Of a stretch of 30,956 bases of DNA, positions 21,001-24,000 are shown one piece after another; positions within the stretch are counted from its first letter, which is position 1, and each line of letters opens with the position of its first letter. Position numbers: made by a program. The DNA is from a virus, in the UHGV virus genome UHGV-0133295. One strand, written 5' to 3'.

Positions 21001-24000
21001 ATTGATGAACTAAGAAAAAATGAAAAAGAATCTGAAACAGAGTAAAGAAGAGAAGGAGAAAACTATGAGCGAAACTACAGAAAAGAAAAGACAACCACGC
21101 ACTTGCTTTCATATTCCTGATGAAGTATTTCAGGTGTTATTTAAAGAAGCCAGAAGTAGACGGATCACTGTCACAGATTACATTCTTGATATGTTGAAAA
21201 GAGAGGCTGAAACACTCTCAAATAAAAGCAAGTGATTTTTATCACCATAGTAGCGCCATAGAGCGTGATTACATCAAGGAGATTTTTAATGATTAACCAA
21301 CTAACTTTTACAAAACACTATGACACGTTTGATAATATATCAAAGATTTATTCTGATAAATTCCCTCAAGGAAAAGATTTAGATCTATTACATATTGTGC
21401 TTTATTTTCGATTCCTTAGTTATCAGGAAAACAACCTTAATTGTTATGAAAGTCACGAAACATTAGCTAAGATTTTTAAGTCTTCATCGTCAACAATTAA
21501 ACGTAAGATAAACGATCTTAAAGAGATGGGATTATTAGAAACATCCCCACATCCTGATCCGTATATTTCATCTTTGATTTACAATGCTCTCCCTCTCACA
21601 GATGCACATATTACTCCCCCAGGAGAATCATCACTCTCTGATCTTTCTGAGGCAGAAGAAGCACAGGAACAACCTAAAGGCCATAAACAGCCTTCTTTTG
21701 ATGTTCTTGATGATGATTGGGATACGCCTTTACCCTGGGAGACGGAAGAAACACCTGTTTCATCAAATGAAAAAGTAGCTAATGATAATGAGGAGGATGT
21801 GTTAGAGAATTTTGCATCTCTTATTATCACGCAGAAGAATACCAGAACAGGAGGGGCATCATTTATAGAATTTGCAAATTCACTAGCTTATAGACACGGG
21901 CTAAAACGACCAAATGGTATTGAGGCATATTTTGCTAAGAAACATCCCAAAGTATATGAAGACTTTGATATTCCATTTTAATAAGTAAGGAGGACTATTG
22001 ATACAGTATTTAATAAAAAGCAAAGTAGACAGAATTCAGTGTAACGACACCGGAAAACGCATCTACGAAACACTTGCTTACCTCTATAAAGGAAAGCCAA
22101 CACCGCTAAAATATAGCGATGTGTTACATCGAGCAGGGTGCTCTGAAGATGGTTTAAAATTCTGGCTTAGACAGCTATCAAATTTCGGTGTTATAGAGAT
22201 TAAAGAATTATCTTTCTCTACATTCAATCTCAAAAGATTAGATAAAGAAATAGACTTCATCTATTCCACTCTCTAAAATCTCTCTATGTAATTAAAATAT
22301 AAAAGGAAAACATTATTATGATAGTAGCTATGTATTGGTTATTGTTCTTTCTCACGTTAGAAGCATATTTCGGGGTGTTTTCCTTTAAAAGAAAAGGAAA
22401 AATAAATGGCAAAAAGAAAAAACAACGTTGTTAAGAAAATCGGTGATTCAGCTTCTCTTCTAAGTAAACCTAAATCTATTCTAAGACGTAAAGACTTTAA
22501 AGAGCTAGTTACGCTCTCCAAGCAAAATAGCGCCCCTGGCGAATGGAAAACAGAGATCATAGAACATTCTCCCTCTGTGCCTTGTGGAGATGAATATATC
22601 GCATTACAAGAAATCTTATCTTCAACACCTGGCGTATTCTGGAAACCTAGAAAAAGAAAAGAGTATATCGTTGATAGCTCTGATTTACGCAAATACCAGA
22701 TTTTAGGATTTGAAGATTATAATCACTACGTTGGTTATCTCGCCACAAATGGCCTAAATAATTTAGTTCCTGAATTCCATTTAGATAATGCAGATCACTA
22801 TGGAGACTTTTAATATGAACAAAAACACGTATGACACAATTTACTCACTAATTAATTATTATGAGGATGATTACCTCCTGCCTTTAAACCGTGCTGAACT
22901 TGAAGCATACAAAGAAAACACGCCAGCGGCACTAAATGAGGCGTTTAAACACTGGGATTTAGCTGTGAATGCCTTTGAGCACCTCTGTAAGCGTGTAGAG
23001 ATGCTCTGTAAGCGTGAGAACGCATACCTGACAGCCGATCAGATATGGGAATTATCAAACTGGATAGAAGATATTGAATCTGATGTTCGCTATGTAGGAG
23101 ATGGCCTTGTTGAACTAGCTCAACGCTTAGGCGCTGCTATCACAGAAGAATAAAAAAAGCAACAAAAAAGTTGTAAAATATCTTGACATTTCATATATTG
23201 TATGTTAATATAATTATATAGGGGTGATTATTTTTCCTTTATTGGTTCGATATTAAAAATTCTTCTTGTCGTTAAAGGGGAGTAAAATCTCCGCTCCCCG
23301 CTTCTCCTCCTCCTTAAGTAAATACTGTGTCATTATTACCTCTTTCCTTTGTTATGCATACATCTTGGAGTGTGCATAACATAGGGTAATTACAAAGGCG
23401 GCTTTAAATGCTGCCTTTTATTTTGCCTGTTATGCAACTTAAAAGTTGTATTTCTTACTTTAAACAAGGTAACAAGGTTTATATAAATGTTGTTCTTAAA
23501 TGATAAAGAGCAAATCATCAAGTATAAAGATGAAATGCTGAAAATTAATCCACAAATTACCGAAATGGTAGCTAAATACGCTGGGTGTTCTGTAGAGGAA
23601 GTAGAAAGATGTGTTGAAAAATATTTTTCTCCTTCTTCTCCGTCTACACCTTCCCTTAATGAATTAATCAAATTAAAAGCTAAGGAGATTACTAAATGAT
23701 TATTGATTTAGACACTCTTTTTCCAAGTCGGAAGACGTTTACAGATCTGGTGGCTTATTGTACTGATCCGTTTGCCTCTGTAGAAAACAAGGTTTTTGCT
23801 TCTCTTCCTGCTGATGTTGAATGCGGAGACTTGATCACCAGCACTGGCGCTAAATATGAATCAGGAGATGATATCTATGTTGTTATGAGTGAATTTGTAA
23901 CGGCTGGAGAAAACAAGCCTGTAGATGTGCTACGTAGCAATGCTGGCCTTGTGTGCATCAAAGCTGATGCGCTGAATGCCGTAAGTGAAGCAGCAAAAAC

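Follow-up and report, generated by a model that had tools for sequence, protein, structure and literature searches.

A predicted promoter, leader RNA and terminator ahead of the capsid operon of a putative phi92-type phage satellite

Why would a phage-like island place a strong promoter so that it fires straight into a terminator, directly upstream of its capsid genes? The question is raised by UHGV virus genome UHGV-0133295 (the window, 30,956 nucleotides in all), in which two conserved genes that we call X and Y are followed by an operon of structural genes beginning with gene 1. The interval that separates gene Y from gene 1 (23154-23486, stop codon to ATG, + strand) holds a cassette made of a predicted sigma-70 promoter, an untranslated leader and an intrinsic terminator. 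Comparison with related islands establishes these predicted elements as real: they keep their position across all relatives, they are under purifying selection, and in relatives the leader is structured as RNA. We favour, tentatively and with slightly less than even confidence, the view that they form a cis-acting regulatory leader and terminator gate on the capsid, tape-measure and tail-initiator operon of a phi92-like satellite; conditional termination and its trigger are what we infer. An earlier note, written from this DNA alone, had likened the arrangement to pR'-6S-tR' of phage lambda: the layout stands, and is conserved over five types of island, but no Q-type antiterminator was found in the island.

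Promoter, leader and terminator in the window and in related islands

A consensus scan for promoters and terminators covered 13 kilobases (kb) of the window (18000-30956). At 23183-23211 (+ strand) it returned TTGACA (23183-23188), a 17-nucleotide spacer and TAATAT (23206-23211), with 10 of 12 hexamer matches, a perfect -35, an extended -10 TG at -15/-14 and an A-rich upstream region. Having TTGACA, a spacer within 16-18 base pairs (bp) and a TATAAT-like -10, this is a predicted sigma-70 promoter, near-consensus as the earlier note had it and conserved in relatives. Promoter-like matches are no commoner overall than in shuffles (37 found against 39.4 expected), so the case for this one rests on its conservation. 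Transcription would start at about 23218-23221, judging from the -10 hexamer and from a conserved (A/T)GGG(G) motif 7-9 nucleotides past it.

The top-scoring intrinsic terminator of the scanned 13 kb lies at 23394-23418 (+ strand), with a U-run to 23425. It reads AAAGGCGGC-TTTAAAT-GCTGCCTTT and then TATTTTG, giving a 9-bp stem with five G-C pairs, a 7-nucleotide loop and an RNA tail UAUUUUG; the G+C-rich hairpin and adjoining U-run make 23394-23425 a predicted intrinsic terminator, which the note had placed, essentially correctly, at 23396-23425. The predicted terminated RNA (23218-23426, + strand) is about 205 nucleotides long from its start to the end of the U-run, in the layout previously described but longer than the 185 nucleotides then estimated. 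The scan found no other + strand sigma-70-like promoter between 23211 and 24045, and no terminator from 23153, where gene Y stops, to 23394; transcripts from the upstream genes and from the leader promoter would therefore both meet the 23394 terminator first. As no other sigma-70-like promoter precedes the capsid module, a gate on that module was a fair reading of the locus. The interval had also been described as non-coding: it contains ORFs (open reading frames) of 20-37 codons only, and indels of 1, 2, 3, 10 and 17 nucleotides break them among 26-31 leader variants, so that there is no coding conservation in the leader.

Two near-identical copies of a 17-bp dyad, the only ones in the window, border the unit. 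Copy 1 (GCAACAAAAAAGTTGTA, 23159-23175) lies 7 nucleotides 5' of the -35, in an A-rich stretch resembling an UP element, and copy 2 (GCAACTTAAAAGTTGTA, 23434-23450) lies just 3' of the terminator; as RNA, small hairpins with A-rich loops (GCAAC-N6-GUUGU) would flank the leader unit. Other island types have a dyad of different sequence at the same distance from the -35, and type D has TAAC-N6-GTTA 3' of the terminator and, in many loci, also 5' of the -35. As operators, these dyads may bind a repressor of the promoter; alternatively they may form RNA hairpins with A-rich loops. Further downstream, the ribosome-binding region of gene 1 (23463-23478, + strand) is a tandem AACAAGGT AACAAGGT, invariant save for one single-nucleotide polymorphism.

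About 110 loci were fetched by way of homologues of the capsid protein, which are confined to islands of Enterobacterales, and 102 of them were sorted by their first downstream gene into five types: A, the type of the window (40 loci), B (13), C (5), D (34) and E (10). About 100 related islands, in E. coli, Klebsiella, Citrobacter, Kluyvera and others, carry the cassette at the same position, and the order from the last upstream gene through promoter, leader and terminator to gene 1 is the same in all five types. The promoter takes the form TTGACA/TTGACT, 17-18 nucleotides, -10 hexamer, 7-9 nucleotides, (A/T)GGG. It is kept in all 39 type A loci with enough flanking sequence, and occurs in 25 type D, nine type E and four type C loci; type B has, by eye, TTGCAT-17-TATAAT-N7-AGGGG. 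Promoter spacers diverge between types and the hexamers are retained. By the same scan criteria, a terminator stands 37-86 nucleotides before the ATG of gene 1 in 96 of the 102 loci, with at least seven unrelated stem sequences in use across the types. In one type E locus (L084), whose capsid protein is 56% identical, the scanning tool independently finds the same pair of promoter and terminator.

What lies between the two elements is far less constant. Measured from the start to the ATG, the leader spans about 270 nucleotides in type A, about 430 in type E, 520-700 in type D, about 830 in type C and about 950 in type B, and neither nhmmer nor a k-mer search found sequence similarity between the five leader types. 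A predicted promoter firing into a terminator, kept while the intervening sequence is replaced, seems very unlikely to have arisen by accident.

The longest leaders deserve a remark of their own. They belong to type B and C relatives from E. coli (L004, about 4420-5400, and L039, about 1534-2392) whose capsid proteins are 72-76% identical, and at about 830-950 nucleotides they occupy roughly a tenth of the element. Long hairpins common to B and C show visible compensatory changes, for example GCAUCCACACCAUG...GCGGUUGGCCACCGC vs GCAUCCACAUUGUG...GCGAUUAGCCGUCGC.

Structure and selection of the leader RNA

Is the leader anything more than a spacer? Its predicted fold (23218-23426) has a free energy of -60.9 kcal/mol (z = -5.47), which none of 200 shuffles equalled, and the opposite strand folds with z = -2.85. 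A consensus fold of 26 type A variants contains three helices, all invariant: two hairpins and the terminator. The first hairpin, GGGGAGU/GCUCCCC (23277-23299, + strand), pairs GGGGAG at 23277-23282 with CTCCCC at 23294-23299 around a 9-nucleotide loop and is also present in the minimum-free-energy fold of the single sequence. The second is a pre-terminator hairpin of 16 pairs (23346-23385, + strand; UCCU.UGUUAUGCAUAC / GUGUGCAUAACA.AGGG) with a loop, AUCUUGGA, that contains GGA; its one variable pair is U-G or U-A, in 13 sequences each. Hairpins with similar AUG...CAU arms stand just 5' of the terminator in types D and E too, and by eye types A, D and E have a common 3' module: a U/C-rich stretch, the hairpin with AUG...CAU arms, a short spacer and the terminator.

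Between the two hairpins runs a CU-rich tract (23301-23315, CTTCTCCTCCTCCTT, extending to 23318 as CUUCUCCUCCUCCUUAAG; + strand), which, like the GGGGAG..CTCCCC hairpin, is where the earlier note had placed it. It is unpaired in the predicted fold, where it presents the CCUCC-bearing string CUCCUCCUCCUUAAG, and its length varies by one CTC/CCT unit among type A variants. Within it, CCUCCUUA presumably matches the 3' end of 16S rRNA (the anti-Shine-Dalgarno). The tract could serve as an anti-Shine-Dalgarno, load Rho through its YC dinucleotides or bind a protein.

Nucleotide diversity (pi), computed over 34 distinct type A islands, is 0.024 for the whole intergenic region. The least variable part is the stretch after the terminator, which holds dyad copy 2 (0.008), followed by the stretch from the stop codon of gene Y to the -35, which holds copy 1 (0.012), the terminator (0.015) and the leader (0.033). 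In the capsid gene and four flanking genes, pi at third codon positions is 0.048-0.17, so that this noncoding stretch is 2-7 times less variable than nearby third codon positions. The type A indels are confined to linkers and fall outside the predicted helices.

Covariation comes from type D. Over its full length the type D alignment yields 11 pairs that show compensatory changes, but its mosaic nature precluded a consensus fold, and we therefore used a 135-nucleotide subdomain. Its 16 pairs are 96.6% paired, against at most 56% in slid controls, and column shuffles gave 27 +/- 3.9 double-change cells where the subdomain has 76. Many of the pairs in these helices are G-U, which argues that the + strand RNA, not the DNA, is selected.

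The five leader types, so different in sequence, have one compositional signature in common. A type A leader has on average 3.96 copies of CCUCC/CUCCU where composition predicts 0.31, and across the types the motif occurs 2.6-6 times per leader against 0.3-1.5 expected, an enrichment of 3-13 times in all five; at least one copy is present in 74 of 74 leaders. GGAGG/AGGAG is nearly absent from the leaders of all five types. Several types carry the CCUCC motif in a hairpin loop, as (C)CUCCU(A/U)AG. Taken together, low diversity, indel-spared helices, covariation in relatives and the CCUCC signature make it appear that the leader is selected as an RNA structure.

This structure matches no known family: the Rfam 15 covariance models gave no match at the gathering threshold in the window and five relatives, and only weak ones at E <= 10 (the best, SurA, with E = 0.057 and 16.6 bits against a gathering score of 100). 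A T-loop-like motif in type D, UUCGAAUC, raised the possibility of a tRNA-like element, which was ruled out, as searches of the window and of seven relatives returned no tRNA- or tmRNA-like element.

How the cassette may work

We propose that the strong sigma-70 promoter at 23183-23211 would transcribe a structured untranslated RNA that by default would end at 23394-23425, so that polymerase coming from this promoter or from genes X and Y would stop short of the operon. Mobilisation by a helper phage of the phi92/phAPEC8 type would bring about read-through of this terminator and of a second one after the capsid gene. As the leader appears to be selected as RNA, the decision would probably be taken on the nascent leader or on the elongating polymerase attached to it, in a manner akin to nut/N, put RNA or a protein-controlled attenuator rather than to a lambda Q loaded at promoter DNA. 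The genes behind the proposed gate are diverged versions of structural genes of the helper, and their expression should match its late development. The terminated RNA may also act in trans.

Several observations weigh against such a gate. No candidate antiterminator was identified among the island proteins, and the leader offers no convincing and conserved pairing in which antiterminator and terminator would alternate: the window has a weak candidate, between 23346-23355 and 23389-23398 (10 nucleotides, 90% complementary), of a kind that, by eye, is not consistently present in other types. The type A leader contains no compensatory pair, because it hardly varies, and the covariation comes from type D leaders that are not alignable to that of the window. 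Leaders of up to about 950 nucleotides go far beyond the needs of a simple attenuator, which hints at an additional or different RNA function. Finally, a helper-specific promoter may lie 3' of the terminator, since helper late promoters are poorly defined.

Phage phi92 has promoters of the form TTGACA...-10...(A/T)(A/T)GGG before gp121 and gp135, and the island promoter thus resembles the sigma-70-dependent promoters of the helper itself. The related phage rV5 (Vequintavirinae) has 33 sigma-70-like promoters, 11 of them with an extended -10; neither a late transcription factor nor late factors of the T4 type were recognised in it (PMC3606486). In the stretch from the terminator to gene 1, inspection by eye for late promoters of the T4 type (TATAAATA) or of the rV5 type (TggTAaAAtA, PMC3606486) gave only partial matches overlapping the ribosome-binding site or the start, and these candidates were rejected.

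Which known systems does the cassette resemble? The late control region of lambda likewise places, behind its last early gene, a strong sigma-70 promoter, then an untranslated RNA some 200 nucleotides long, a terminator and the morphogenetic genes, and in both cases further terminators inside the operon would need to be overridden. The promoter-proximal terminator between a constitutive promoter and late genes that marks an operon under Q is found here too. The differences are that the island has no Q-like protein, that its likely helper is a lytic phi92-type myovirus, and that its leader is conserved as a structured RNA, of about 950 nucleotides in some relatives. Lambda 6S RNA, by comparison, is not known to have a required structure. 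In the N/nut system of lambda (boxA/boxB) and in HK022 put, a structured RNA just after the promoter rides with polymerase through terminators, as the leader could do. The small A-rich-loop hairpins that would flank the unit here add to the likeness, but no put- or nut-like match was found, no test having been aimed at one. The type D element TGCTTTCTAACAA resembles TGCTCTTTAACAA, which we take to be the rrn boxA sequence; this string sits in a covarying hairpin, and the window lacks it. Nor did the island yield an N-like protein, gene X being basic at its N-terminus and otherwise unplaced. More broadly, no antiterminator family was found among the 15 largest ORFs of the island (ten scanned against Pfam and PHROGs, five against PHROGs only, ten with PADLOC).

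In the immunity system of satellite P4, the constitutive promoter PLE produces a leader RNA that is processed to CI RNA and causes premature termination. P4 too is a phage satellite in which a leader RNA transcribed from a constitutive-looking promoter decides on downstream transcription, but it gates replication genes where the island gates capsid genes, and the island leader has neither an Rfam match (the C4 family is presumably RF01695) nor internal complementary repeats of the seqA/seqB/seqC type. ToxIN, a type III toxin-antitoxin system whose terminator sets the ratio of RNA to protein, has the same order of promoter, non-coding RNA, intrinsic terminator and protein gene. Its hallmarks are missing here: the leader has no tandem repeats, and downstream stand structural proteins (capsid, tape measure) rather than an endoribonuclease, with no defence-system match. 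Long leaders controlled by Rho are also untranslated, and the C-rich, G-poor (YC)n tract CUUCUCCUCCUCCUU would suit Rho loading, but the visible stop is an intrinsic terminator and no homologue of Psu, the Rho antagonist of P4, was detected, so that this likeness is purely inferential. By analogy, then, the layout is that of pR'-6S-tR' and the logic is perhaps nearer to antitermination through RNA or to P4 immunity with its leader RNA.

Could the promoter and terminator delimit an RNA that has nothing to do with the operon? A free-standing, abundant RNA acting in trans, close to the sRNA that the earlier note gave as its alternative, whose CCUCC-rich loops might for instance bind strong Shine-Dalgarno sites in mRNAs of the helper or island or titrate an RNA-binding protein, would give the terminator the role of a true 3' end and leave the capsid operon to a helper-dependent promoter invisible to a sigma-70 scan. 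We consider this unlikely. The pairing of a strong promoter with an efficient-looking terminator would suit it, as would leaders of 400-950 nucleotides in relatives, large for an attenuator, the enrichment of anti-Shine-Dalgarno-like pentamers in all five unrelated leader types with avoidance of their complement, and the strong AGGAG/GGAGG ribosome-binding sites annotated for phi92 genes. Yet the leader keeps its place and orientation before gene 1, which is the behaviour of a cis element and is not required of a gene acting in trans; no recognised promoter separates the terminator from gene 1; and the proposed targets fare poorly. Positions 23228-23240 are complementary over 13 nucleotides to the ribosome-binding site and start of gene X, and some type D islands have a 10-nucleotide match, but there is no covariation across islands (leaders pair with their own gene X start mostly over 6-10 nucleotides, and cross-pairs average about 7.5). 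The 'hairpin' at this site moreover consists in part of the coding sequence of a small ORF, and this antisense idea is a weak lead. Against 44 phi92 translation starts, the leader did no better than shuffled leaders, its best pairing reaching -31.4 kcal/mol where shuffles had a mean best of -28.0 and an extreme of -32.4. At the opposite end, regulation might be absent altogether: the terminator would end the X-Y operon and insulate the capsid operon, a fixed leak would set a low constitutive level and the RNA would be functionless. Upstream transcripts would indeed also end at 23394, and we identified neither a trigger nor an alternative structure; a promoter kept before the terminator in about 100 islands despite repeated replacement of the sequence between them, together with purifying selection, covariation and the motif signature, makes simple insulation quite improbable.

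A protein might alternatively do all the work, as in lambda, where a DNA-binding antiterminator of the Q type, here from helper or island, would load on a paused polymerase and leave the RNA as a by-product like 6S. The element order matches that of the Q gene, pR', 6S, tR' and late genes, passing the second terminator, behind the capsid gene, would take processive antitermination, and the conserved dyads beside the promoter could be protein-binding sites. We nevertheless regard this as improbable: no Q-like family occurs among the island proteins, the probable helpers are lytic Stephanstirmvirinae and not lambdoid phages, the -10-like pause elements in the first 25 nucleotides are by eye not consistently conserved, and a promoter-loaded factor needs neither a leader selected as structured RNA nor one that is 2-5 times longer in relatives. 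Function at the DNA level, with the interval serving as a packaging site, a replication origin or a set of operators and the RNA features being incidental, is highly improbable. It would account for the many inverted repeats and for the placing of the two near-identical dyads in the most conserved stretches, and an island without a terminase gene must carry a helper-type packaging signal somewhere. Against it stand the strand-asymmetric folding stability, the G-U pairs kept in covarying helices and the conservation of promoter and terminator. The leader also has no similarity to any E. coli phage DNA, even at low stringency, so a copied helper packaging site or promoter is unlikely; the island's only phage-like DNA is elsewhere (21248-21296), and its replication-initiator-like gene lies 1.2 kb upstream.

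A cis-acting gate, if confirmed as the function of the cassette, would bear on how satellites solve a general problem. They must limit morphogenetic gene expression to the presence of a helper, and the known solutions are protein-based: derepression in SaPI (Staphylococcus aureus pathogenicity islands) and PICI (phage-inducible chromosomal islands), and activation by Ogr/Delta in P2/P4. Here an element of about 9 kb spends 3-10% of its length on a non-coding leader at that decision point. Promoter-proximal terminator gates are already known, and the novelty would lie in the unusually large, fast-evolving, CCUCC-rich leader of an apparently undescribed satellite family. It is possible, though on balance doubtful, that the leaders constitute a new class of structured RNAs, fast-evolving, CCUCC-rich and about 200-950 nucleotides long, peculiar to an undescribed family of satellites of phi92/phAPEC8-type lytic myoviruses and with a role beyond termination. 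They would either detect helper infection directly as RNA and open the capsid/tail operon, or serve in large amounts as anti-Shine-Dalgarno or Rho-loading RNA that changes gene expression while the helper is parasitised. Should the leader prove to be the switch, a new family of satellites, parasitic on large lytic phages of types used in phage therapy (phi92/phAPEC8), would possess a helper sensor made of RNA, and read-through of the terminator would offer a directly testable reporter. Should the RNA act in trans instead, it would represent a novel sort of anti-phage or hijacking RNA.

The island, its genes and its neighbourhood

The gated operon (23487-27964, + strand) is a tightly packed, co-oriented structural block with Pfam and PHROG matches. 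Gene 1 (70 amino acids, starting at 23487) and gene 2 (120 amino acids) precede a major capsid protein of the lambda gpE type (24077-25105; Pfam PF03864), which is a distant full-length relative of phi92 gp124 (22% identity, E = 6e-10). A 67-amino-acid protein separates it from a tape-measure-like protein (25412-27247), which matches phi92 gp134 (E = 7e-33), the two N-termini being nearly identical, and the operon closes with a tail-tube-initiator/baseplate-like protein of 227 amino acids (27281-27964), 55% identical to phi92 gp135. All are on the + strand, as is a terminator-like hairpin directly 3' of the capsid gene (25130-25146, GGCGTG...CACGCT and a T-run), which could set the stoichiometry of the capsid protein or require processive antitermination.

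The island around this operon, from about 20.8 to 29.4 kb, further comprises a tyrosine integrase on the opposite strand, a helix-turn-helix/replication-initiator-like gene and small ORFs. Pfam and PHROG scans found no terminase, portal, sheath or tube gene among its genes. As a small integrated element with an integrase and a replication gene, an incomplete virion set and relatedness to a helper, the island looks, from its genes, like a satellite of lytic myoviruses of the phi92/phAPEC8 type (Stephanstirmvirinae). It is apparently undescribed: full-text literature searches found no published description of such an island. The helper dependence suggested in the earlier note fits this gene content; the likely helpers are these lytic myoviruses and not lambdoid phages.

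Part of the island is present in 741 of 5426 complete E. coli genomes (about 14%), and nearly the whole of it in 269. No direct repeats of at least 12 nucleotides that could mark attachment sites flank it, and PADLOC found no defence-system match among the ten island proteins scanned. At 21248-21296 the island shares about 40 identical bp with the Phapecoctavirus Mt1B1_P17, where they span part of an intergenic region and the start of a gene (GCCATAGAGCGTGATTACATCAAGGAGATTTTTAATGATTAA). This stretch lies directly 5' of, and extends into, the replication-initiator-like gene of the island, and may be a helper-type regulatory or translation-start signal that the island has copied. Before the first island gene (20857), a second strong promoter of the same style, at 20717-20745, combines TTGACA, 17 nucleotides, AATAAT and an extended -10 TG, with 11 of 12 matches, and is probably an early promoter.

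Immediately to the left of the island genes, about 3.5 kb (17100-20600) contain short ORFs only, without family matches; this region is 95-97% conserved beside the island in other E. coli, where it is annotated as almost empty (a hypothetical protein and a tRNA-Thr), and an ARAGORN search of the window returned no tRNA. The region could be debris of the integration site, or else a portion of the island that has decayed. Just past the island integrase, a 112-amino-acid ORF (29640-29978) matches phrog_3423, a family of unknown function (E = 1e-49), and more weakly the integrase family phrog_1. Its resemblance to an integrase N-terminus suggests a truncated second integrase, hence an integration site that has been used repeatedly.

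Strains with the island include EHEC O26, O103 and O111, and this type of it is found in O26 RM10386 and in E. coli DSM 103263 (NZ_CP192200.1). In DSM 103263 (locus L001, 1-14944), the same island stands beside paoD/paoC and a LysR-type pseudogene. We take this neighbourhood to be the right end of the K-12 cryptic prophage CP4-6 (yagL...intF), and part of that prophage may be left over from a satellite of this family; the leader does not occur in K-12-like genomes among the matches listed.

The two genes before the cassette are conserved to different extents. Gene X (22406-22813, + strand; 135 amino acids, with the basic N-terminus MAKRKNN...) has homologues at the same position in all five island types. 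They form 387 clusters, every one annotated hypothetical, and extend like the capsid homologues beyond E. coli to Klebsiella, Citrobacter, Enterobacter, Cronobacter, Kluyvera and Serratia. Gene Y (22788-23153, + strand; 112-121 amino acids, helical and acidic), the last gene before the promoter, has homologues by sequence search in E. coli only; by eye, an upstream protein of L084 seems to resemble its N-terminal part. Neither gene has a Pfam, PHROG, PADLOC or PDB match, and the AlphaFold model of gene X is too poor (pLDDT, its predicted confidence score, of 51) to serve as a query in a structure search. With no family, no PDB relative and no usable gene X model, X and Y were not retained as antiterminator candidates.

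Overlapping the start of gene X is a 38-codon ORF (22318-22434, MIVAMYWLLFFLTLEAYFGVFSFKRKGKINGKKKKQRC) with a hydrophobic N-terminus and a basic tail. Similar ORFs stand at the same place in Buttiauxella (L005) and in the type E locus L084. Its product could be a small peptide of the membrane, akin to a toxin or a holin, with translation coupled to that of gene X.

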